From: a virus
Taxonomy: Duplodnaviria; Heunggongvirae; Uroviricota; Caudoviricetes
Virus record (IMG/VR): IMGVR_UViG_2706794670_000010
Length of the DNA: 9,346 nt
Direction: 5' to 3' (one strand)
Both the position numbers and the translations under genes were made by a program. Below the pieces are notes generated by a model. The model saw nothing but the letters and a program-made list of their open reading frames with translations, searched no databases and was not told the origin of the DNA. Of the stretch, positions 1 through 9,346 are shown piece by piece. The stretch's first letter is position 1, and each line of letters begins with the position of its first letter.

Positions 1-103
1 GGGACGGAAGTCGCTGTCGTTCTCAAAATCGGTGGAGCTGCATGACAAAGTCATCGGGCATTATCTGAACATAAAACACTATCAATAAGTTGGAGTCATT
101 ACC
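1..103 (+). mobile_element. IS1 insertion sequence, right (3') end; element continues left of the window
   Basis: Bases 1-103 match the IS1 3' region as I recall it, ending in the terminal inverted repeat ...ATCAATAAGTTGGAGTCATTACC at base 103. Orientation is the same as the IS1 end at 9264-9346. Confidence 0.85.
2..88 (+). CDS. insB: IS1 transposase InsB, C-terminal fragment (5' part outside the window)
   Basis: Frame 2 reads ...GRKSLSFSKSVELHDKVIGHYLNIKHYQ then TAA at 86-88, which is the InsB C-terminus. It lies inside the IS1 right end. Confidence 0.75.
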   Translation, partial: GRKSLSFSKSVELHDKVIGHYLNIKHYQ

Positions 104-235
104 AAACGGTTGAAATGTATGCCGCTACTTACGGGTCCTGTAATCCTCTGAATAAACCAGAGGGAAAAGATGATTTCGACAAAATTTACCGCTTCTTGGA
201 GGACCGCTATATCAAAAGCTTAGAGGACGCAGGGA

Positions 236-613
236 TCAAATCCCCAGTGAAGTCACCATTGTCCTGAGAACTTGCAGAACGTCATGATCATAACTTCCAT
301 CCAAACCGCGACGGCGAATTGCTTCTCGTATTACCGGAAGCAGTTCGCTGGAAATCTCGGTGCATATTTCACCTGATAATACGCTTGGCTCAAGTGAGAA
401 TATTGGTGAACTTACGGTCTTGGTCTCGACAGTTTCAGAGTCAGTGCCAACATTATAAAGCTCAACGAAAGCGGTCTTGATTTTCCGGGCCAGATCTTTT
501 GCTGGCTCGCTTGCAATATCTTTCCCGATTTCTCGCAGCACAGAATGCAATGTATGAGCTGCTGTTTTCTGTACATCAGACGGTAAATCTTTAAATTCCA
601 TCGTCAGCCTCAT
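236..613 (-). CDS. hypothetical protein in the leftward (early-left-like) prophage operon, 121-125 aa
   Basis: Open minus-strand frame from the ORF track. Two candidate starts: ATG at 613 overlapping the upstream stop (TGATG), or ATG at 601 preceded by GAGG with a 6-nt spacer. No recognisable catalytic motif. Confidence 0.5.
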   Translation of the reverse strand: MRLTMEFKDLPSDVQKTAAHTLHSVLREIGKDIASEPAKDLARKIKTAFVELYNVGTDSETVETKTVSSPIFSLEPSVLSGEICTEISSELLPVIREAIRRRGLDGSYDHDVLQVLRTMVTSLGI

Positions 614-765
614 CAGTCAGTGTTTCTGGCTAACCAGCAACGCGCGCCAGATTCGGTTTTAAACGTTTTGCTTTTGGTATACGTCATGGCGGTAAACGTT
701 CCATCCTGGTTAGGGAACACGCCGCACACCAGAGATTCGTTGTTGCCAAGATCGATAGTATCCAT
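613..765 (-). CDS. small hypothetical protein (~50 aa; MDTIDLGNNESLVCGVFPNQDGTFTAMTYTKSKTF...)
   Basis: Internal ATG at 765 is preceded by GAGG (5-nt spacer), whereas the ORF-track start at 819 has no Shine-Dalgarno. The stop overlaps the start of the next leftward gene. Size and position recall the small genes next to the Rac repressor, but I cannot confirm identity. Confidence 0.4.
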   Translation of the reverse strand: MDTIDLGNNESLVCGVFPNQDGTFTAMTYTKSKTFKTESGARCWLARNTD

Positions 766-946
766 GCTGACCTCATTTCCCCTTAACGCCGGGGTGGCGG
801 AACAAAAAACCTGCTGCATAGTTAAAGATTGAACCCTGCCGTCATGTTCTTACGCCTCGGGCTGGCTACTTAACCCCTGACCACTGTCTGGTAACTCGAA
901 GTATTGCCCTGCATTCTGTGGGGCGGGGTGGGTTGACGCCTGAAAC

Positions 947-989
947 AATAGCATCATTATTTTTTTTTGATGTAAATAGCATCGCTATT
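947..989. promoter_or_regulatory. OL-like operator pair: AATAGCATCATTATT (947-961) and the perfect 6-3-6 palindrome AATAGCATCGCTATT (975-989)
   Basis: Read directly from the sequence. The half-site AATAG(C/T) with an ATC spacer is the same as in the palindromes between the divergent repressor and cro-like genes (2085-2125). The pair sits upstream of the leftward operon starting at 765, beyond the terminator of the repressor operon. A matching -10/-35 could not be assigned confidently. Confidence 0.4.
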
Positions 990-1004
990 GTTTTTTGTTG
1001 GGGC

Positions 1005-1029
1005 AAGAAAAAACCACCCTAAGGTGGTT
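1005..1029 (-). terminator. putative intrinsic terminator for the leftward repressor/antitoxin/toxin operon
   Basis: A 7-bp stem AACCACC (1012-1018) / GGTGGTT (1023-1029) with loop CTAA. On the minus-strand transcript the hairpin is followed by UUUUCUU (complement of 1005-1011). It lies 17 bp past the toxin stop at 1046. Confidence 0.45.
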
Positions 1030-1045
1030 CTGTCGGCGGGAATAA

Positions 1046-1336
1046 TTAACTGTTTTTGCCTGGATACTGTCTTCGAGAATGCACAATATTTACTACTTCT
1101 ATGCTTGATGCTGTTACTCGGTAAAGGATGATGTAGTTAGGATGAGTTACAATTTCACGAAGACCAAGAACTCGCTCGCTTGGAGGATACAGGTAAGGAT
1201 GCTCTGTGAGCGGCAAAACGGATGTTTCAATTCGAATTTTCATTCTGCGTGCTGCCGCGGGATTTTCTTTAGCTATGTAGGCTACGATCTGGCGCAAATC
1301 ATCACGAGCAGATGGTAGCCATAAAACGGGTAACAT
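1046..1336 (-). CDS. type II toxin-antitoxin toxin, ParE/RelE superfamily (96 aa)
   Basis: Translation MLPVLWLPSARDDLRQIVAYIAKENPAAARRMKIRIE...IILYRVTASSIEVVNIVHSRRQYP has the ParE/RelE sequence pattern (N-terminal helices, C-terminal YR/VHSRR-type beta region). Its start overlaps the upstream gene's stop as TAATG. Confidence 0.8.
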   Translation of the reverse strand: MLPVLWLPSARDDLRQIVAYIAKENPAAARRMKIRIETSVLPLTEHPYLYPPSERVLGLREIVTHPNYIILYRVTASSIEVVNIVHSRRQYPGKNS

Positions 1337-1530
1337 TATTCACCTCTGTGAGTTGCAGCAGCAATTTGGGCAATAATTTGTTCCATTTCCGCCATTACCT
1401 CATCATGCGGAATCGCCGGGCGGGGATCCGCGAGGCTTGCTGCTACTTTGGCCCGCAGCCATTCGTTGTAACTATTTTCTTGCTCAACTGTCTCAAATTC
1501 TGAAACCATTGGGGAAAGGACTGTACTCAT
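1336..1530 (-). CDS. cognate antitoxin (ParD-like / CC2985-type addiction-module antidote, 64 aa)
   Basis: Small acidic protein (...EWLRAKVAASLADPRPAIPHDEVMAEMEQII...) immediately upstream of, and overlapping, the ParE-like gene. GAGGAG lies about 9 nt upstream of the ATG at 1530. Its start is 19 bp below the repressor stop. Confidence 0.7.
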   Translation of the reverse strand: MSTVLSPMVSEFETVEQENSYNEWLRAKVAASLADPRPAIPHDEVMAEMEQIIAQIAAATHRGE

Positions 1531-1549
1531 TTTACATATCTCCTCTGAT

Positions 1550-2050
1550 TTAGGCGCGACGGCCTTTTTGTGCAGCTAACCACCGCGCAACCGTACGATC
1601 CATTGATTCTTTTTTATCTTTCATCTCCTGAAGCATGTGTTCTTGATCTTCTTTCGGAAAAGCTCTGAACGTATGGATTAAATCTCGTTCCATCGGCTCT
1701 ACGGCAAACGGTAGTTCATCCTCTGTTTGTTCTGTGTCTGCTGGTAATGCGACTATGTTATCTTGCTGTGGTTCTCGACAATACATCCTTGCAATTTGCA
1801 GCAAATCTACCATGTCTGGCCTGATTGACTCAGGGGGAACTTTCAGTAAGCCAGCAAACTTTAGAACAGCCTCAAGGTTTAGTGGGGTTTGACCATTTAG
1901 GTAGTGACTTACCGCCCCTTGTGTTGAAAACCCCATAATTTCCGCCGCACGTTCCTGAGTCAATCCCAACTGAGATTTCTTTGCCATCCAGATTTCTTTC
2001 AGTCTTCTGGCGGCGTTGAGGTCGGTGTCTGACAATGATTTTCTTTTCAT
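1550..2050 (-). CDS. CI-like prophage repressor, Xre-family HTH, no S24 peptidase domain (RacR-like architecture)
   Basis: HTH segment LGLTQERAAEIMGFSTQGAVSHYLNGQ. It is divergent from the cro-like gene with operator palindromes in between. The first ATG is at 2050 (166 aa); the ORF-track start at 2080 is a GTG without a Shine-Dalgarno. The C-terminal region lacks the Ala-Gly/Ser-Lys autocleavage signature. Confidence 0.8.
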   Translation of the reverse strand: MKRKSLSDTDLNAARRLKEIWMAKKSQLGLTQERAAEIMGFSTQGAVSHYLNGQTPLNLEAVLKFAGLLKVPPESIRPDMVDLLQIARMYCREPQQDNIVALPADTEQTEDELPFAVEPMERDLIHTFRAFPKEDQEHMLQEMKDKKESMDRTVARWLAAQKGRRA

Positions 2051-2084
2051 ACATCCAATTCTAATAAGATTGCTAATCACTTTG

Positions 2085-2125
2085 AAATAGTATCACTATT
2101 TACTTTTAAAAATAACAGTGCTATT
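2085..2125. promoter_or_regulatory. OR-like operator region: palindrome AAATAGTATCACTATTT (2085-2101) and related site AATAACAGTGCTATT (2111-2125); candidate rightward promoter -35 TTTACT (2099-2104) and -10 TATTAA (2122-2127)
   Basis: Inverted repeats read directly from the 111-bp interval between the divergent repressor and cro-like genes; centres are 25 bp apart. The promoter hexamers are weak matches with a 17-bp spacer. Confidence 0.45.
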
Positions 2126-2161
2126 AATTATGCATTGGTAACACATCACATAGGGCGGATT

Positions 2162-2425
2162 ATGAATCTTGGAGAATATTTGCATCATTTTCATATAACC
2201 CAGAGTTCATTTGCTGAGATTGTTGGCGCATCCCAAGGGATGGTCAGCCACGTTATAACGGGGCGTGCAAAACTTACAGGAGAAAAAATATTACGTTGGT
2301 GTGAAGCAACGGGATGGGTGGTGACCCCACATGAGATTGACAGTAAAACCTACCCCAACCCAACTGACGGCTTGCCTGCTGAGTTTCAGGCTAACACACA
2401 ACCATCGGCGGGGGTTGATTCATGA
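2162..2425 (+). CDS. Cro-like / YdaS-like HTH regulator (~87 aa)
   Basis: HTH segment SSFAEIVGASQGMVSHVITGRAKLTGEK. It is the first rightward gene opposite the repressor. ATG at 2162 is preferred over the in-frame TTG at 2135. Its stop overlaps the next start as ATGA. Confidence 0.7.
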   Translation: MNLGEYLHHFHITQSSFAEIVGASQGMVSHVITGRAKLTGEKILRWCEATGWVVTPHEIDSKTYPNPTDGLPAEFQANTQPSAGVDS

Positions 2426-2847
2426 AAATCAAGCATGAACACATCCGCATGGCGATGAAAGCCTGGGCGCATCCGGACGGTGAAAAAGTTCCGGCAGCTG
2501 AAATAACCAGGGTTTATTTCGAACTGGGAATGACGTTTCCGGTTCTGCATAACGACAGCAAGCACAACACGCTTTATCTCAACACCCAAAAGATTTTCCG
2601 TTGGCTGGATAAAGACACCCCTGACGCTGTTGAAAAAATTCAGGCGTTGTTACCTGCGATCGAAAGGGCAATGCCACCTCCGCTGGTGGCTCGAATGCGC
2701 AGCCACAGTTCAGCTTATTTTCGGGAACTGGTGGAGACGCATGAACGACTGGTGAGAGACGCTGATGATTTTGTCGCAGTGGCAATCGCCGGTTTCAATC
2801 AGATGAACCGTGGTGGCCCGGCAGGAAATGCTGTGGCAGTACATTGA
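2422..2847 (+). CDS. YdaT-like (CII-analogue) prophage regulator, 141 aa
   Basis: Begins MKIKHEHI..., which I recall as characteristic of the YdaT family of Rac-type prophages. It sits in the cII position and is translationally coupled to the cro-like gene. Confidence 0.65.
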   Translation: MKIKHEHIRMAMKAWAHPDGEKVPAAEITRVYFELGMTFPVLHNDSKHNTLYLNTQKIFRWLDKDTPDAVEKIQALLPAIERAMPPPLVARMRSHSSAYFRELVETHERLVRDADDFVAVAIAGFNQMNRGGPAGNAVAVH

Positions 2848-2918
2848 CTGACAATAGCCATATCGAATCGCTCCCGGCAACTCGTGAGTAAAAAGATTCG
2901 GTATCAGAAGAGGTGAGT

Positions 2919-3593
2919 ATGGCTAACGCCTGGCTCAGATTATGGCATGACATGCCAAATGACCCTAAGTGGCGAACAATTGCCAGGGTGTCAGGGCAGC
3001 CAATTGCAACAGTGATGGCAGTGTATATCCACCTCCTGGNNNNNNNNNNNNNNNNNNNNNNNNNNNNNNNNNNNNNNNNNNNNNNNNNNNNNNNNNNNNN
3101 NNNNNNNNNNNNNNNNNNNNNNNNNNNNNNNNNNNNNNNNNNNNNNNNNNNNNNNNNNNNNNNNNNNNNNNNNNNNNNNNNNNNNNNNNNNNNNNNNNNN
3201 NNNNNNNNNNNNNNNNNNNNNNNNNNNNNNNNNNNNNNNNNNNNNNNNNNNNNNNNNNNNNNNNNNNNNNNNNNNNNNNNNNNNNNNNNACAAAATGGCG
3301 ATTGTCACGGCGCGTCACGAAATGTCACGCACATGTCACGACGAGTCACGACAGATACAGATAAAGATACAGATAAAGAAGATCAAAACACTATGGTCCA
3401 TGGCGTAAAAAACGCCACGAACCAGGCAGGGGATGTTCAGACCGTCAATCCTGGTCAGCCAGCAGGCTCGACACCGGAAGCCGATTCAGCGTATGCGCTG
3501 AAAGCCGATTCGGGCGCTGTGCAGCAGGTGATGACCGCAAGGCCGGAGCAATCACTCCAACTGCAGCAGCCTGAAGCCGATTCCGCCATTCAG
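2919..3593 (+). CDS. phage replication initiator (O-like / replisome organiser), partial: interrupted by masked run 3040-3289 and running into masked run 3594-3859
   Basis: ATG at 2919 is preceded by GAGGTGAG. The N-terminus MANAWLRLWHDMPNDPKWRTIARVSGQPIATVMAVYIHLL is typical of phage replication-initiator N-domains. The frame stays open through the visible stretch 3290-3593, which holds the iterons and a low-complexity linker. The true 3' end is not visible. Confidence 0.6.
3040..3289. other. N-masked run (250 nt), sequence unknown
   Basis: Run of n characters. ORF-track proteins crossing it are X-filled and uninformative. Confidence 1.
3304..3377 (+). repeat. candidate replication-origin iterons inside the initiator gene: GTCACG x5 phased at 10-11 bp (3304, 3314, 3324, 3335, 3345), then 12-bp direct repeat GATACAGATAAA x2 (3354-3365, 3366-3377)
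   Basis: Read directly from the sequence. Helical-period phasing of a short motif followed by an A-rich stretch inside the initiator gene parallels the lambda arrangement, where ori lies within O. The upstream extent is hidden by masking. Confidence 0.55.
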
Positions 3594-3859
3594 NNNNNNN
3601 NNNNNNNNNNNNNNNNNNNNNNNNNNNNNNNNNNNNNNNNNNNNNNNNNNNNNNNNNNNNNNNNNNNNNNNNNNNNNNNNNNNNNNNNNNNNNNNNNNNN
3701 NNNNNNNNNNNNNNNNNNNNNNNNNNNNNNNNNNNNNNNNNNNNNNNNNNNNNNNNNNNNNNNNNNNNNNNNNNNNNNNNNNNNNNNNNNNNNNNNNNNN
3801 NNNNNNNNNNNNNNNNNNNNNNNNNNNNNNNNNNNNNNNNNNNNNNNNNNNNNNNNNNN
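3594..3859. other. N-masked run (266 nt), sequence unknown; hides the end of the initiator gene and/or the start of the helicase-loader gene
   Basis: Run of n characters. Confidence 1.
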
Positions 3860-3898
3860 TGTGAATCATATTTCTGAACCGGATACCGAAATTCCGCC

Positions 3899-3919
3899 NN
3901 NNNNNNNNNNNNNNNNNNN
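3899..3919. other. N-masked run (21 nt)
   Basis: Run of n characters. Confidence 1.
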
Positions 3920-3921
3920 CT

Positions 3922-4386
3922 GACGAACTGATGACCGGGTGCACGAATTTTGTGTTCAGCGGTAAAACCGGCACCGGGAAAAATCACCTTGCAGCGGCGA
4001 TGGGTAACCGGCTGATGGCGAAGGGGCGCAGCGTGATTATCGTCACCGAGTCTGATGTCATGAGCGTGTTGCATGACAGCTACGACAACGGCAAATCCGG
4101 TGAAAAATTTTTACAGGAGCTTTGCGGGGTTGATTTGCTGGTCCTGGATGAAATAGGCATTCAGCGGGAGACGAAAAACGAGCAGGTGGTATTGCACCAG
4201 ATAATTGATCGCCGGACAGCATCACTGTGCAGTGTCGGGATGTTAACAAACCTGAATCATGCCGCAATGAGCACGCTTCTTGGTGAGAGGATTATGGACC
4301 GCATGACCATGAACGGTTGTCGGTGGGTGACGTTTAACTGGGATAGCTGGCGTTCAAATGTCAGCTTTCCGGGAGTTGTGAAGTAA
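3922..4386 (+). CDS. DnaC-like helicase loader (IstB-like AAA+ ATPase), C-terminal ~155 aa visible; 5' part lies in masked sequence
   Basis: Walker A FSGKTGTGKNHLAAA and Walker B LLVLDEIG, and the visible stretch follows my recalled DnaC sequence closely. The frame is open upstream into the N-run, and ATG at 3931 would sit only 10 residues before the Walker A, so the real start is upstream. Stop at 4384-4386. Confidence 0.8.
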   Translation, partial: DELMTGCTNFVFSGKTGTGKNHLAAAMGNRLMAKGRSVIIVTESDVMSVLHDSYDNGKSGEKFLQELCGVDLLVLDEIGIQRETKNEQVVLHQIIDRRTASLCSVGMLTNLNHAAMSTLLGERIMDRMTMNGCRWVTFNWDSWRSNVSFPGVVK

Positions 4387-4407
4387 TTTTTGTTGGAGGA
4401 TGTTTTA

Positions 4408-5133
4408 ATGGAAACTGTATTTGACGCACTGAAAGCACTGAAAAGAGCCTCTTCACATGTGGTGGCGTCCCGCCTTGGAATCAGCCGTGAAGATGCGGTC
4501 AACGAACTGTGGAAACTGAAGCGCCGTGGTGAAGCGGATAACAAGGGTTCGATGTGGTGGCTGATTCAGGCTGGTGAAAGTGAACCAGTGTCACCGGTAC
4601 CGAAAGTGACAGCGCAAATGCTGACTGAGGCGATTGAACAACATGGCCCACAAACGGCGGATGAGCTGGCACTGATGTTCGGGATTACCTCCCGCCGGGC
4701 GAATTCATCGCTGGCCATGGCAATCAGCAAAGGGCGTCTGATTCGCGTGAATCAGGGCGGTAAATTTCGGTACTGCATACCGGGCGCTGATTTACCGGCA
4801 GAGCCGAAAGCCGCATCCATAGCGGAAACGGATGGTAAAGTCTTTCCTCAGCCAGCAGGTGTTGCGTTACCGGTACAGGAAGCTGCAACACAGGAAGAAA
4901 TTAAAACAGAAACTGTGGCGGACATTGTGCAGTCGTTGCCATCGTTCACCGAAACGCAAGCGGATGACCTGGTTTTACCATCGCTGCATATGGCAAACCG
5001 CGAACTGCGTCGGGCGAAAAGTCATGTCCAGAAGTGGGAGCGTGTCTGCGCCGCGTTGCGGGAGCTGAACAAGCACCGGGATATTGTTCGACAGATTGTC
5101 GATTCCTCCGGTCGTATTGTGTCGGAAAAGTGA
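4408..5133 (+). CDS. hypothetical phage protein, 241 aa, two tandem winged-helix-like segments plus acidic linker and helical C-terminus
   Basis: GGAGGA lies 7 nt upstream of ATG 4408; the ORF-track start at 4390 is a TTG. Segments [22 protein letters not shown] and [28 protein letters not shown] look like wHTH recognition regions. Family not identified. Confidence 0.6.
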
Positions 5134-5148
5134 TTGCCGGGGGCGCTT

Positions 5149-5571
5149 ATGGCAAAAGTATTTACACAGGAAGAGCGGGAAAAAATTAAGGGGCAGGTTG
5201 TTGAACTCGTACGCCAGAGTGGGCGCGAGACGTTACGACAACTGGAAGCTAAAACCGGGGCGACAAGATATTTAATAAGCGTTCTCGCCAGAGAGCTGGT
5301 TGCCAGTGGGGATGTATACAACTCTGGCTACGGGTTATTCCCGTCTGAACAGGCTCGTAAGGACTGGCAAAACGCCCGCAAAAAACTCTCGAGGGCAAAG
5401 CTGAAGAAACCATCTGTGGTTGATCCGGACCTTATCTGGTCATTACCGGACGGAGAAATACGCCGCTACGACAGACATCAGAACATAATCTGTCGCGAGT
5501 GCCGGAAGAGTGAAGTTATGCAGCGTGTACCGGCTTTCTATCAGGGTGATTTTCAGGAGGCGGTACTGTGA
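5149..5571 (+). CDS. hypothetical protein, 140 aa, N-terminal winged-helix-like segment, C-terminal CxxC
   Basis: ATG at 5149 is preceded by GGGGG (5-nt spacer) and follows the previous stop by 15 nt. Contains ETLRQLEAKTGATRYLISVLARELVASGDV and CRECRK. Confidence 0.55.
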   Translation: MAKVFTQEEREKIKGQVVELVRQSGRETLRQLEAKTGATRYLISVLARELVASGDVYNSGYGLFPSEQARKDWQNARKKLSRAKLKKPSVVDPDLIWSLPDGEIRRYDRHQNIICRECRKSEVMQRVPAFYQGDFQEAVL

Positions 5572-5628
5572 GTGAAATTAGCTATCAGGCTTCAATTACC
5601 GCTGGCATTCGCATCAAAGGAGAGGAGC

Positions 5629-5985
5629 ATGGAAATAAAACCAGAAGATGAGTTAAGCAATATTGTTTTATTTCCGGTAAAAGAGGATAACCCTCGTAAT
5701 CAGGTTAATTTTCTTTATGAGCCATCGGAAAGACCATATTGCCATCACGCTTCTGTCCGGGTTGACGAAAAAGAGCGTCAGGTCCGCTGTAAAATTTGCG
5801 GTGCAGTTGTGGAGCCATTTGACTGGATGCTCTCTGTGGCGAAAAGAGAAACCAGACTGGCAGATGATGTAAGGCTCTTGCGCCAGGAGGAGCGGGAAAG
5901 GCGAAAAAATATAGAAAAGCTAATCCAGATTGAGCGTAATGCGAAAGCGCGGATACGCAGGGTGACAAAATATAGCCCCGAATAA
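5629..5985 (+). CDS. hypothetical protein, 118 aa, putative zinc ribbon (CHH...CKIC) with basic coiled-coil C-terminus
   Basis: Strong Shine-Dalgarno AGGAGAGGAG at 5617-5626 before ATG 5629; the ORF-track start at 5572 is a GTG directly after the previous stop. Cys/His spacing CHH-x17-CxxC. Confidence 0.55.
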   Translation: MEIKPEDELSNIVLFPVKEDNPRNQVNFLYEPSERPYCHHASVRVDEKERQVRCKICGAVVEPFDWMLSVAKRETRLADDVRLLRQEERERRKNIEKLIQIERNAKARIRRVTKYSPE

Positions 5986-6124
5986 TCAAGGTTATTTCTG
6001 GAAGTCAAGTCGTGAGTGATGAGGACTAACAAATACGGTGAACTCGATAAAGAGATTCAGGACGAACTGGAGGCCAGGAATGATTGACAAATCACCAAGT
6101 GAGTTCAGCTACAAAGATTTATTG

Positions 6125-6140
6125 TCATAACGGGTTATGA
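6125..6140. promoter_or_regulatory. perfect inverted repeat TCATAAC-GG-GTTATGA upstream of the methyltransferase gene (possible operator or RNA hairpin)
   Basis: Read directly from the sequence, 60-110 bp upstream of the candidate methyltransferase starts. Function is not established. Confidence 0.2.
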
Positions 6141-6199
6141 GATCGACTTGGTGCGTGATATTCTTCGGGCCAGTTTGCTATGCGCCACCATGAGATGTT

Positions 6200-8032
6200 A
6201 TGGCCCGCATGTTTGATACATTAGGATTTTACATTATGAATGTGCAACATTTTGATTTTTTTACAGATAATGAGTTTTCTAATCTGGAAAGATATCAAAC
6301 TTGTAAAGCCATGGCCAAAGGTTATGCGGGCAATTACAAAACCGGGCAGTCAAGGTTGATGCATGCCCGCTCATACTGCTTCAGCATCGTAGCTGCATAT
6401 TGGGATACCCTTGCAAAAAAGCAAAAAAGCAGCATTAAAATGAGGGCAGTACCGCACACTGTTTACATAGAAGACATTCCATGTGATGCACGCGAGCTCG
6501 CTGAACGAACAGGTGAGCTTATTGCTCAATTTCCGGCGGAGGACGCTGGATATCTGATTGGGTCAATTTATACGGTAATGCTGCCATCCGCTTACCGTTC
6601 GGAATTGGGGGCTTACTATACCCCCCCACCTTTGGTAGCGCGTCTCTTGGACCTGGCTGAAAAGTCTGGTGTTGATTTTTCTCATGCATCGGTTATTGAT
6701 CCTGCGTGTGGTGGCGGTGCATTTTTGGCACCAGTAGCCATTCGAATGTTAAAAAAAGACAAGGGGTCTTCCCCTGAATGGATGTTGAGGAGAATCAGTC
6801 GTCGTTTAAAGGGGATAGAGATCGATCCATTTGCGGCTTGGATGAGTTTGGTATTGCTCGAATCTGTACTAATGCCACTATGTGTAAAGGTAAAACGTAG
6901 ATTGCCTGAAGATACAATTATTGTTGCTGATGCGCTTCAGCAAGATAAATTTTCTGGTTATGATCTTGTGGTAGGGAATCCGCCTTACGGACGTGTCACT
7001 CTCGATATTAAAACGAGAGAAAAATATTCTCGTTCGTTATTTGGTCATGCAAATCTATATGGATTGTTCACCGACTTAGCTGTTCGCATGGTTAAAGAGA
7101 AAACAGGAGTTATTGCATTTCTTACGCCAACTTCTTTTCTTGGTGGGCAGTATTTCACCGCGCTGCGAACCCTTTTGACCGAAAAAACTACTCCGTATGC
7201 CCTTGATTTCGTCACTGACAGGGATGGGGTCTTTGACGATGTTCTCCAGGAAACAATGTTGACAGCATTCAAGGCGGGAGAACATAAAGTTCGGGCCCAG
7301 GTATCCTCACTTGTCCCTAAGGGGTTGAACAAAGCAAAAATTGAGAAAATAGGTAATGTTGATATAGAAAAAGGTGGAGCAACGTGGCTTTTGCCACGCG
7401 TTAAAGATGATGCCTGTTTTCTTAATGTATTAAAACAGATGTCTACGCGTTTAGCTGATCTGGGATACTCAGTCTCTACAGGTCAGTTAGTCTGGAATCG
7501 ATTTAAGTCGCAGTTGCGTACGACGAAAGGAAAAAATAGCTACCCATTAGTCTGGGCGGAATCAATAACTTCAGCTGGTTTTCGTTTTAGTGCAGACAGA
7601 AAAAATCATGTTCCCTATATCGATATAACCCCACAACAGGGTTTCCTTGTGACAAAATCTGAATGTGTGCTTGTTCAGCGGACAACATCGAAGGAACAGG
7701 ACAGAAGGATTTTAGCGGCAATTTTACCTCAGGGATTTATAGATGAAACTGGTGGCGTAGTAGTTGAAAACCATATTAATATTGTATATTCAAACGGATT
7801 GTTCTCTGCGGTTCGCCCTGATGTTATTGATATGCTACTTAATTCGCATGTTGTCGATCGGGCGTTCAGGTGTATAAGCGGAAGTGTTGCTGTTTCGGCC
7901 TATGAATTGAATTCAATCCCGTTGCCTTCTCTGGAGCAGGTGATGGAGATTCAATCGTTAATTGATGCTGGCGTCCACAGACGGATTATTGAGAGAACTA
8001 TCGCTGGTTTCTATGGAGTGATGATTGCATGA
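6200..8032 (+). CDS. gamma-class N6-adenine DNA methyltransferase (Type II R-M modification subunit), 598-610 aa
   Basis: Motif order YYTPPP (motif X), then DPACGGGAFL (motif I, AdoMet binding), then VVGNPPYG (motif IV, NPPY), then a long C-terminal target-recognition region. Start is ambiguous: ATG at 6200 or 6209, or ATG at 6236 with AGGA 9 nt upstream. Stop TGA at 8030-8032 overlaps the next ATG. Confidence 0.85.
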   Translation: MARMFDTLGFYIMNVQHFDFFTDNEFSNLERYQTCKAMAKGYAGNYKTGQSRLMHARSYCFSIVAAYWDTLAKKQKSSIKMRAVPHTVYIEDIPCDARELAERTGELIAQFPAEDAGYLIGSIYTVMLPSAYRSELGAYYTPPPLVARLLDLAEKSGVDFSHASVIDPACGGGAFLAPVAIRMLKKDKGSSPEWMLRRISRRLKGIEIDPFAAWMSLVLLESVLMPLCVKVKRRLPEDTIIVADALQQDKFSGYDLVVGNPPYGRVTLDIKTREKYSRSLFGHANLYGLFTDLAVRMVKEKTGVIAFLTPTSFLGGQYFTALRTLLTEKTTPYALDFVTDRDGVFDDVLQETMLTAFKAGEHKVRAQVSSLVPKGLNKAKIEKIGNVDIEKGGATWLLPRVKDDACFLNVLKQMSTRLADLGYSVSTGQLVWNRFKSQLRTTKGKNSYPLVWAESITSAGFRFSADRKNHVPYIDITPQQGFLVTKSECVLVQRTTSKEQDRRILAAILPQGFIDETGGVVVENHINIVYSNGLFSAVRPDVIDMLLNSHVVDRAFRCISGSVAVSAYELNSIPLPSLEQVMEIQSLIDAGVHRRIIERTIAGFYGVMIA

Positions 8033-9111
8033 ATCTGCCTGTTGTTCCCCCATTGAATGTTATCCGGGAAAGATTACAATTAATTTTCCCTGAAGGGACT
8101 GAGAATCGTGGATATTTAATTCGGGAAATAGCTGCAAAAACAATTTTTGTCATGTTTTATGCTGGTGCGGTTGAGGGGCTGGGGCGATGGATAAGGCCCA
8201 GCCAGGTTGTAAGTATGGGAGATTCGCAGGCTGCTCTTACTGATGATGCGTCCAGAGAAAGCTGGGTAAAGATGACTTTCTCTAAACAAAAGATAAGGCC
8301 TGCTGATGCATGGTATGCGGAAAATACGCGTGAGCCAATACGTGATGAAACTATAAAAAATGGCCTAATACCTTGCAATGCAATTGTTGAGCGTAAAGGT
8401 ATACCCACCACATCCTCTCGTCCTCGTTACAGTTTGAATCGCTCTTTTGCAGCACTCTTTGATGCCGGGCTTGAAGGAGATTCGCTGCTGAGTGCAATAA
8501 GTTCCTGGCAAGAAAATCATTTGAACAAAGCCGCTCTTGCTAGGTTGCGTTTATTGAAATCAGGGGCAGTGATTGCTGCTGATGCCGTAGTCGTCACTTT
8601 CCCAAATGGAGAGAAGAGAACTTTAGCTCCGGGCCCGTCAAGTACAATAGCTAAGGCCGTCATCGAAGTTTTTGCTCCTAATTTTCTTAAGAATCCAACT
8701 GTGCTCTGGTTGTCTGAATCCGGGAATAAAGTTGTTGCTCAGGATGATGTATTGGCAAAAGCATTGGGGCTGAATATTGATGCCTCAAAAGCACTTCCAG
8801 ATATTATTTTGATTGATTTGGGAGAGGACCGAACGGGTTCGGACATGCTTGTAGTTTTCACTGAAGTAGTTGCGACAGATGGGCCTATAAACAGGGAACG
8901 AAAAGTTACTCTCACTCATTTGGCTATTGACGCTGGGTTCAGCGAGAAAAATCTTGCATTCCTTACGGCATTTATGGACAGAAGTGCTCTGCCTTTTAAA
9001 AAGGCAATACCAGAATTGGCGTGGGGATCTTATGCATGGTTTGCTTCTGAACCGGAGCACTTAATTGATCTTCGGGATGGTTATCCGGTAAAGATCAGCC
9101 AGAGAAAATGA
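8029..9111 (+). CDS. putative Type II restriction endonuclease partner of the methyltransferase (possibly BsuBI/PstI-like; family unverified), 360 aa
   Basis: ATGA start/stop overlap with the methyltransferase and GGAG 10 nt upstream indicate translational coupling. Same AT-richer composition as the methyltransferase. I could not locate an unambiguous PD-(D/E)xK motif by eye, so nuclease identity is inferred from context. Confidence 0.55.
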   Translation: MNLPVVPPLNVIRERLQLIFPEGTENRGYLIREIAAKTIFVMFYAGAVEGLGRWIRPSQVVSMGDSQAALTDDASRESWVKMTFSKQKIRPADAWYAENTREPIRDETIKNGLIPCNAIVERKGIPTTSSRPRYSLNRSFAALFDAGLEGDSLLSAISSWQENHLNKAALARLRLLKSGAVIAADAVVVTFPNGEKRTLAPGPSSTIAKAVIEVFAPNFLKNPTVLWLSESGNKVVAQDDVLAKALGLNIDASKALPDIILIDLGEDRTGSDMLVVFTEVVATDGPINRERKVTLTHLAIDAGFSEKNLAFLTAFMDRSALPFKKAIPELAWGSYAWFASEPEHLIDLRDGYPVKISQRK

Positions 9112-9263
9112 CCAAAGTTTGATATCCGCCACGCCCTGAAGGATGGGGGTTTTACGGTGCACTGGATAAAAAATCGGTTTCATAGATTTGCCCACCGTGG
9201 TATACGCCTGCGATAAAAACTTTATTGTCATCAACGGCAAAAGCAATAATTGTTCTGTGGCGG

Positions 9264-9346
9264 GGTGATGCTGCCAACTTACTGATTTAGTGTATGATGG
9301 TGTTTTTGAGGTGCTCCAGTGGCTTCTGTTTCTATCAGCTGTCCCT
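9264..9346 (+). mobile_element. IS1 insertion sequence, left (5') end; element continues right of the window
   Basis: GGTGATGCTGCCAACTTACTGATTTAGTGTATGATGGTGTTTTTGAGGTGCTCCAGTGGCTTCTGTTTCTATCAGCTGTCCCT matches the IS1 left terminal repeat and insA leader as I recall them. Same orientation as the IS1 end at 1-103. Confidence 0.85.
9319..9346 (+). CDS. insA: IS1 InsA, N-terminal fragment (GTG start; continues beyond window)
   Basis: GTG GCT TCT GTT TCT ATC AGC TGT CCC translates to (M)ASVSISCP, the InsA N-terminus. Confidence 0.7.

Follow-up and report, generated by a model that had tools for sequence, protein, structure and literature searches.

PstI and BsuBI (CTGCA^G), after which the Pfam family is named, combine an endonuclease of about 320 aa with a methyltransferase of about 500 aa, and the recognition sites of PstI, BsuBI and YenI all contain CTGCAG; YenI is presumably the prototype of the enzymes in which methyltransferase and endonuclease are fused. 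The only family member with a solved structure is SdaI (PDB 2ixs), which has 323 aa and an 8-bp target (CCTGCA^GG). A prophage-borne restriction-modification (R-M) pair, EcoGIII, is found in the Stx2a prophages of E. coli O104:H4 C227-11 and O145 RM13514; it is a PstI isoschizomer whose target, CTGCAG, is experimentally known, and the enzyme is reported to be biochemically active on this sequence (PMC3893438).

We analysed a stretch of 9,346 nucleotides (the window; 8,809 non-N bases, the other 537 being masked as N at 3040-3289, 3594-3859 and 3899-3919) that carries a methyltransferase gene (M, 610 aa, 6200..8032) followed by its cognate endonuclease gene (R, 360 aa, ATG start, 8029..9111); all features given here lie on the + strand. 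Like EcoGIII, this is a prophage-borne Type II pair of E. coli in which M precedes R and the two genes overlap. The endonucleases of both systems carry the two BsuBI/PstI Pfam domains and a lysine-less PD...E-x-V motif, and both methyltransferases are N6-adenine enzymes, homologous to each other over their catalytic and C-terminal regions. However, R is just 26% and M 25% identical to its EcoGIII counterpart, and the proteins of the window are longer than the Stx2 phage pair (360 + 610 aa compared with 317 + 489 aa), so that the earlier remark that both exceed PstI-type lengths was correct. The two systems also differ in place and frequency: EcoGIII, very common in E. coli, adjoins the cI repressor gene; the window cassette lies downstream of replication genes, and its gene pair is present in 2 of 5,426 complete genomes, both of them E. 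coli chromosomes. Fused M-R profiles (PADLOC PDLC03359, 840 positions; PHROG 1639, 838 positions) are matched by the window's M in their N-terminal part and by R in their C-terminal part, but here M and R are separate, overlapping genes.

Judging by its sequence, R is a Type IIP restriction endonuclease of the BsuBI/PstI/SdaI family. It lies far above the Pfam gathering score for the N-terminal winged-helix domain (BsuBI_PstI_RE_N, PF17728), reaches 152.2 bits for the catalytic domain (BsuBI_PstI_RE, PF06616; cut-off 27 bits; residues 188-349, profile positions 2-152 of 154) and matches a PADLOC Type II REase profile over its full length with 426 bits. R is also a homologue of SdaI in sequence (~21-25% identity) and in fold; PstI and BsuBI are connected to it through the two Pfam domains. 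When the Stx-phage enzyme served as query of a homology search, all matches were near-identical E. coli sequences, with PstI and BsuBI absent. The start of R at 8029 is supported by its homologues, which share the opening residues M-(N/S)-L-P. The sequence-only reading had named a BsuBI/PstI-type endonuclease with a gamma-class N6-adenine partner as its candidate and had proposed a profile search against the two Pfam families; both domains were matched, and the candidate is borne out by these matches, by the homology to SdaI and by a homologous methyltransferase gene directly upstream of R on the same strand in all 80 genomes sampled. Taken together, the best explanation of the whole is a Type IIP R-M cassette of two genes in a lambdoid prophage, with this ORF coding for its endonuclease subunit (probability about 0.9).

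The assignment of M to the gamma class of N6-adenine methyltransferases comes from Pfam (Eco57I, 51 bits; N6_Mtase, 38 bits) and from a full-length match to PADLOC MTase_II PDLC03338 (996 bits). Two motifs can be read from the sequence, motif I for SAM binding (IDPACGG, residues 166-172, 6695..6715) and the catalytic N6-adenine motif IV (NPPY, residues 260-263, 6977..6988), and their order, I before IV, is the gamma-class arrangement, in which a C-terminal target-recognition region comes next. The closest solved relative of M is M.TaqI, and compared with M.EcoGIII it has an N-terminal extension of ~110 aa. The earlier expectation of a gamma-class methyltransferase partnering a PstI/BsuBI-type enzyme therefore held for the class of the partner, but M is no close relative of M.PstI or M.BsuBI. 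At the junction of the two genes (8015..8032) the ATG of R overlaps the stop of M by 4 nt (GC-ATGA, 8029-8032) and a ribosome-binding site, GGAG, stands 10 nt upstream (8015-8018); the ATGA overlap suggests translational coupling of M and R. Scanning the surroundings of the cassette for promoters and terminators gave matches at chance level only, and no conserved small HTH gene that could encode a controller (C) protein was found beside the cassette in the neighbourhoods examined. The 137-aa zinc-ribbon ORF upstream is part of the phage backbone (PHROG 1621) and not of the cassette.

The structure model of R used here was built from an alignment of 117 sequences and replaced a first, poor model (pLDDT 66) that had been based on a shallow alignment of 24 sequences. 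R consists of a winged-helix domain for DNA recognition at the N-terminus (residues 1-172, 8029..8544) and a C-terminal catalytic domain (residues 185-350, 8581..9078), joined by a flexible linker (residues 170-184, 8536..8580), which is the only segment of this second model with a pLDDT below 50. Within the recognition domain, a modelled helix at residues 98-113 (ENTREPIRDETIKNGL, 8320..8367) is the candidate recognition helix by analogy with SdaI; its residues R101, E102 and R105 are invariant in our alignments A2 and A3 and are common to SdaI and the EcoGIII-type enzyme. The modelled elements of the catalytic domain follow in the order helix 203-219, strands 223-230, 234-238, 259-263 and 274-280, helix 289-301 and strand 309-315, and this predicted order agrees with the published SdaI topology, H1-S1-S(-1)-S2-S3-H4-S4 (PMC1874628). 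Structure prediction, suggested earlier as a way to find a nuclease fold, has thus located an SdaI-type endonuclease fold in the C-terminal domain.

R is not an isolated case: we found 277 matches to a long-form clade (~360-aa R with ~600-aa M) across reference genomes, carried by prophages, plasmids and transposons, i.e. in unrelated mobile contexts. The methyltransferase upstream of R is the matching long form in 77 of the 80 sampled genomes; at three loci the partner of a long-form R is a short BsuBI-type M, which resembles M.EcoGIII more closely than it does the M of the window. The long form exceeds the EcoGIII-type enzyme by roughly 40 residues, most of which fall in the recognition domain; this domain of R has ~38 extra residues in five small insertions. 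The extra length of R is the mark of a distinct long-form clade, whose small insertions are concentrated in the winged-helix domain.

The active site was examined in an alignment of 77 diverse family sequences, SdaI included. P257-D258 (8797..8802), the 'PD' of the catalytic motif, stands at the start of a beta-strand (modelled strand 259-263 comes next) and aligns with P232-D233 of SdaI; D258 is D in 75/77 sequences. The second acidic residue, E279, aligns with SdaI E248 and is E in 75/77, followed by two valines and an alanine (E279-V-V-A282, 8863..8874), the V281 column being V in 69/77. E213 (8665..8667), in the first core helix, is near-invariant (E in 71/77; invariant in A3), and R291 (8899..8901), which opens the helix that follows the E-x-V strand, is R in 75/77, the other two sequences being gapped there, and invariant in A2 and A3; G285 is also conserved across the 77 sequences. 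We take D233, E248 and K251 to make up the active site of SdaI. Further points on that active site are quoted from PMC1874628 and PMC1874659. The column of K251 is occupied by A, H, V, S, Y, F, N, K or T across the family; lysine is found there in one sequence of 77, SdaI itself, while the EcoGIII-type enzyme has T and the long-form clade an invariant alanine (A282). Going by the alignment, the family motif is thus a lysine-less PD-(D/E)XK variant consisting of E213, P257-D258, E279-x-V281 and R291, and for this reason no PD-(D/E)XK motif is visible by eye. That the sequence-only reading saw no clear signature of this type is understandable: the PD at 257-258 and the acidic E279 are there, but the lysine is missing at +2 and +3 of E279. 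R291 is a candidate substitute for the absent lysine.

The missing lysine is also what would favour taking R for a catalytically dead nuclease homologue that does no more than bind DNA at specific sequences or serve as a regulator. We consider this very improbable, because almost all members of the family lack the lysine, and the EcoGIII-type enzyme, reported to be active (PMC3893438), does without it as well. Moreover, D258, E279, E213 and R291 are under strict conservation, and the obligatory methyltransferase partner at all 80 loci makes sense only if R endangers unmethylated DNA. Still further from the data is the earlier fallback of a new methyltransferase-linked effector unrelated to known endonuclease families: the Pfam, PADLOC and SdaI sequence and fold matches place R in the BsuBI/PstI/SdaI family over its full length, they refute that fallback, and we give it next to no credence. 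By contrast, the target of the endonuclease is a matter of nearly balanced odds. The likeliest target in our estimate, with about an even chance, is CTGCAG or a different TGCA-core palindrome. That the long-form clade, with the same family and architecture, recognises something other than CTGCAG (a TGCA-core site such as ATGCAT, or an unrelated one) is a serious contender at just short of even odds. With its ~38 extra residues, the recognition domain of R shares only 17% identity with its counterpart in the EcoGIII-type CTGCAG enzyme (31% in the catalytic domain), the partner methyltransferase is of a different subfamily with its own N-terminal extension, and the DNA of carriers shows no avoidance of CTGCAG. 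On the other hand, the residues N99-T100-R101-E102...R105 of the recognition helix are identical in the CTGCAG enzyme, short methyltransferases of the BsuBI type accompany some of the long-form R genes, and XphI, a PstI isoschizomer, comes from Xanthomonas phaseoli, whose plasmids carry the long-form pair. All characterised members that we could trace recognise a CTGCAG-containing site, e.g. EcoGIII (PMC3893438) and SdaI (PMC1874628), although SdaI, with CCTGCAGG, shows that specificity can change within the family (PMC1874628). A new, non-CTGCAG specificity in the clade, in which the invariant alanine together with R291 may represent an undescribed PD-(D/E)XK catalytic arrangement, is in our view somewhat less likely than not. 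Our literature search found no characterised member of the long-form clade and no paper giving it a recognition site.

The count of sites in the window says little about the target. CTGCAG occurs exactly once, at 3561, and the earlier judgement that a single site is too few to test avoidance is correct, since only ~1.8 sites are expected from the base composition of the 8,809 bases. The wider count proposed at that time was carried out as an observed/expected analysis of palindromes at 80 carrier loci, and it did not reveal the avoidance sought: in 657 kb of carrier flanks CTGCAG shows no specific depletion (rank 38 of 64 palindromes, in a test whose power is not established). In 220 kb of cassettes CTGCAG is even the least depleted palindrome, an excess that may stem from Leu-Gln codon pairs (CTG-CAG) under conservation. 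CTCGAG, the word with the strongest depletion, was considered as a target and rejected, as it is no outlier among other G+C-rich palindromes.

The prophage is lambdoid and of E. coli type, and the cassette forms a moron-like accessory module of its early region, where it follows the replication genes. A near-identity DNA search of a phage collection gave no match for the M-R pair. A near-identical E. coli gene (99.9% DNA identity), which lies inside a prophage, carries the PGAP product name BsuBI/PstI family type II restriction endonuclease; the endonuclease gene is already annotated in RefSeq and part of an ordinary Type II R-M module. By analogy with SdaI and PstI, two R monomers would assemble on one palindromic site through their N-terminal domains, and the C-terminal domains would cut both strands in a Mg2+-dependent manner unless the site carries N6-methyladenine, a protective mark that the upstream gamma-class NPPY methyltransferase, presumably coupled to R via the ATGA overlap, would provide. 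The pair would protect the lysogen from incoming unmodified DNA, and it would also stabilise the prophage, because loss of the pair would expose the chromosome to cleavage. The significance beyond correct annotation is small for such a standard module. Nevertheless, a prophage-borne m6A methyltransferase will add a motif to the methylome of its host and hinder the uptake of DNA, effects that are documented for EcoGIII in Stx2 phages, and a single methylome run could give the specificity for hundreds of annotated long-form genes. Among plant-associated Burkholderia and Xanthomonas, plasmids commonly carry members of the clade.

The reading frame of the endonuclease gene (R) lies at 8029..9111 (+), with ATG as start codon and a 360-aa product, exactly as claimed in the sequence-only reading, which had named a BsuBI/PstI-type endonuclease as leading candidate and a new methyltransferase-linked effector as fallback. 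In the HMM search it had proposed, a Pfam scan (gathering score 27 for either model), we found the two defining domains of the BsuBI/PstI endonuclease family, the N-terminal HTH domain PF17728 (106.6 bits, residues 10–172) and the catalytic domain PF06616 (152.2 bits, residues 188–349). R also matches a PADLOC Type II endonuclease profile end to end (426 bits), and its sole solved relative by sequence is SdaI (PDB 2ixs; E = 1.8e-16, residues 96–349). R and its methyltransferase gene (M) occur at 99.2–99.9% identity in two E. coli chromosomes; at the FDAARGOS_943 locus (99.9% identity) the PGAP product WP_001053102.1 is named ‘BsuBI/PstI family type II restriction endonuclease’. Taken together, the Pfam, PADLOC, SdaI and PGAP evidence shows the candidate to be correct and refutes the new effector: R is an ordinary restriction endonuclease from a known family and is already annotated as such. 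The remaining novelty is that its long-form clade (R of ~360 aa, M of ~600 aa) has seemingly been without any biochemical characterisation so far.

The R start codon shares bases with the stop codon of M (6200..8032 (+), 610 aa), the sequence reading GC-ATGA, and is preceded, at a distance of 10 nt, by a GGAG. M matches a PADLOC Type II methyltransferase profile with 996 bits and, as its motif I (IDPACGG, residues 166–172) precedes motif IV (NPPY, residues 260–263) and M.TaqI is its nearest solved relative, is confirmed as a gamma-class N6-adenine methyltransferase. Both proteins had been described as longer than expected. Indeed, compared with the short EcoGIII-type pair (26% identity to R and 25% to M), R has 43 additional residues, present as small insertions, five in the recognition domain (residues 2–9, 28–32, 55–63, 85–92 and 146–153) and two further ones in loops of the catalytic domain. 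The alignment of M with the short methyltransferase begins at about residue 120, so an N-terminal extension accounts for most of its additional length. The first 110–120 aa of M (residues 1–120, window 6200–6560) have neither a Pfam match nor a counterpart in short BsuBI-type enzymes; the stretch is present in many long-form homologues and missing in others, e.g. from Sphingomonas (alignments from about residue 99).

SdaI D233, E248 and K251 align with D258, E279 and A282 of R, and the block P257-D258 ... E279-V-V-A282-(T/S)-D-G-P is invariant in 24 close homologues. In an alignment of 77 sequences (74 diverse family representatives from 50% clustering, the query, SdaI and the EcoGIII-type enzyme of Stx2 phages) we observed high conservation of P257 (74/77), D258 (75/77), E279 (75/77), V281 (69/77), G285 (74/77), R291 (75/77) and E213 (71/77). 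The column of SdaI K251, however, holds A, H, V, S, Y, F, N or T, with K in SdaI alone. The Stx2-phage enzyme has T here (within V-E-S-V-T-S-H-G-P); it shares 99% identity with its E. coli O104:H4 C227-11 counterpart, whose gene is reported to be biochemically active and whose partner M.EcoGIII is reported to methylate CTGCAG (PMC3893438). As all aligned sequences but SdaI lack the lysine, this reported-active type included, its absence is a family property and no sign of inactivity of R; it also explains why no nuclease motif had been found by eye. The invariant R291, which opens the helix following the E-x-V strand, is a plausible candidate to supply the basic residue that the motif lacks. 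Built on a shallow alignment, an initial AlphaFold model of R was of poor quality (pLDDT 66); a later one, from a 117-sequence alignment with more diverse homologues added, reached a mean pLDDT of 85.7 and shows two well-defined domains with a disordered linker between them (170–184). The order of its catalytic-domain elements (helix 203–219, strands 223–230, 234–238, 259–263 and 274–280, helix 289–301, strand 309–315) matches the published SdaI topology H1-S1-S(-1)-S2-S3-H4-S4 (PMC1874628), the structure prediction suggested earlier thereby recovering an SdaI-type catalytic domain.

Scanning one genome per species, we found 277 relatives. In each of the 80 retained loci, R is immediately preceded on its own strand by a methyltransferase homologue, and in 77 of these the divergence of M (42–67% identical) tracks that of R (51–68%). 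Long-form R is accompanied by a short BsuBI-type methyltransferase in L031 (~4488–7062), L033 (~4437–7044) and L057 (~893–3956). Here R is 53–60% identical to the window R, and M shares 31–36% identity with M.EcoGIII vs 25–27% with the window M; members of the family have apparently swapped their methyltransferase partners. The cassette occurs in a Burkholderia chromosomal island, a Serratia P2-like prophage, an Arenimonas TniQ/TniB transposon and on many plasmids, among them 32 Xanthomonas and 25 Burkholderia records.

Regarding the target, all characterised relatives we traced recognise CTGCAG-containing sites, and the predicted recognition helix of R has its N-T-R-E...R residues (R101, E102 and R105 are invariant family-wide) in common with the CTGCAG enzyme of Stx2 phages. 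The three loci pairing long-form R with a methyltransferase nearer M.EcoGIII likewise point, by sequence, to a CTGCAG-type target. Other findings speak against such a target or are neutral. The recognition domains of R and the CTGCAG enzyme share just 17% identity. Against a maximal-order Markov expectation, CTGCAG comes 38th among the 64 hexamer palindromes ordered by depletion in 657 kb of carrier flanks (80 loci; O/E 0.77), and in 220 kb of cassettes it is the one least depleted (O/E 1.08). All other hexamer palindromes are depleted in both; CTCGAG shows the strongest depletion in the flanks (O/E 0.48, z = -9) and is among the strongest in the cassettes (0.31). The single CTGCAG in the window (3561) had been judged too few to assess avoidance and, with ~1.8 expected by base composition in 8,809 unmasked bases, indeed favours neither side; N runs at 3040–3289 (250), 3594–3859 (266) and 3899–3919 (21), masking parts of the replisome-organiser ORF (2913–3923), leave site counts slightly short and repeats or iterons there unreadable. 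Our literature searches found no paper assigning a recognition motif to the long-form clade. Overall, we put the probability that R targets CTGCAG itself at roughly one half.

Family membership, the two-domain fold, the conserved acidic catalytic residues and the gene overlap are shown, as is the obligatory adjacent N6-adenine methyltransferase. By analogy with SdaI, whose N-domains dimerise on a single DNA copy (PMC1874659), and PstI, two R monomers would bind one palindromic site via their winged-helix domains, and the C-domains would cut both strands in a Mg2+-dependent manner and probably leave 3' overhangs. Cleavage would be blocked where the site carries m6A, and the pair may defend the lysogen and stabilise the prophage.

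In the window the cassette is part of a lambdoid prophage, where it lies downstream of the replication genes, flanked upstream by DUF977 and a small zinc-ribbon gene and downstream by a convergent RelE/ParE toxin gene. The FDAARGOS_943 prophage having the same stretch carries DUF968, RusA and antiterminator Q genes still further downstream. The 137-aa ORF just 5' of M (5572–5985, +) shows a weak, below-threshold PF08271 zinc-ribbon match and strongly matches PHROG 1621, whose function is unknown. It accompanies the cassette in both E. coli prophages, whereas in other genera it does not. The toxin gene converging on R (9153–9346, −) is a C-terminal part, its FDAARGOS_943 counterpart being annotated as a RelE/ParE-family toxin, and a complete ParE toxin gene (1046–1336, −; PF05016, 64 bits) adjoins the repressor gene. 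With two toxin-antitoxin-type genes in the window, the restriction cassette thus sits among other addiction/defence modules. Relative to the two cassette-bearing E. coli prophages the window is mosaic (1–5292 vs 5293–9263): positions 5293–9263 are 99.1% identical to FDAARGOS_943, whereas the immunity and replication region matches in patches only (85–97%), and the repressor (1550–2080) and DUF1627 (4390–5133) genes have no match there. FDAARGOS_943 has an intact M-R pair, but frameshifts in its cro-like, DnaC-like and Q genes.
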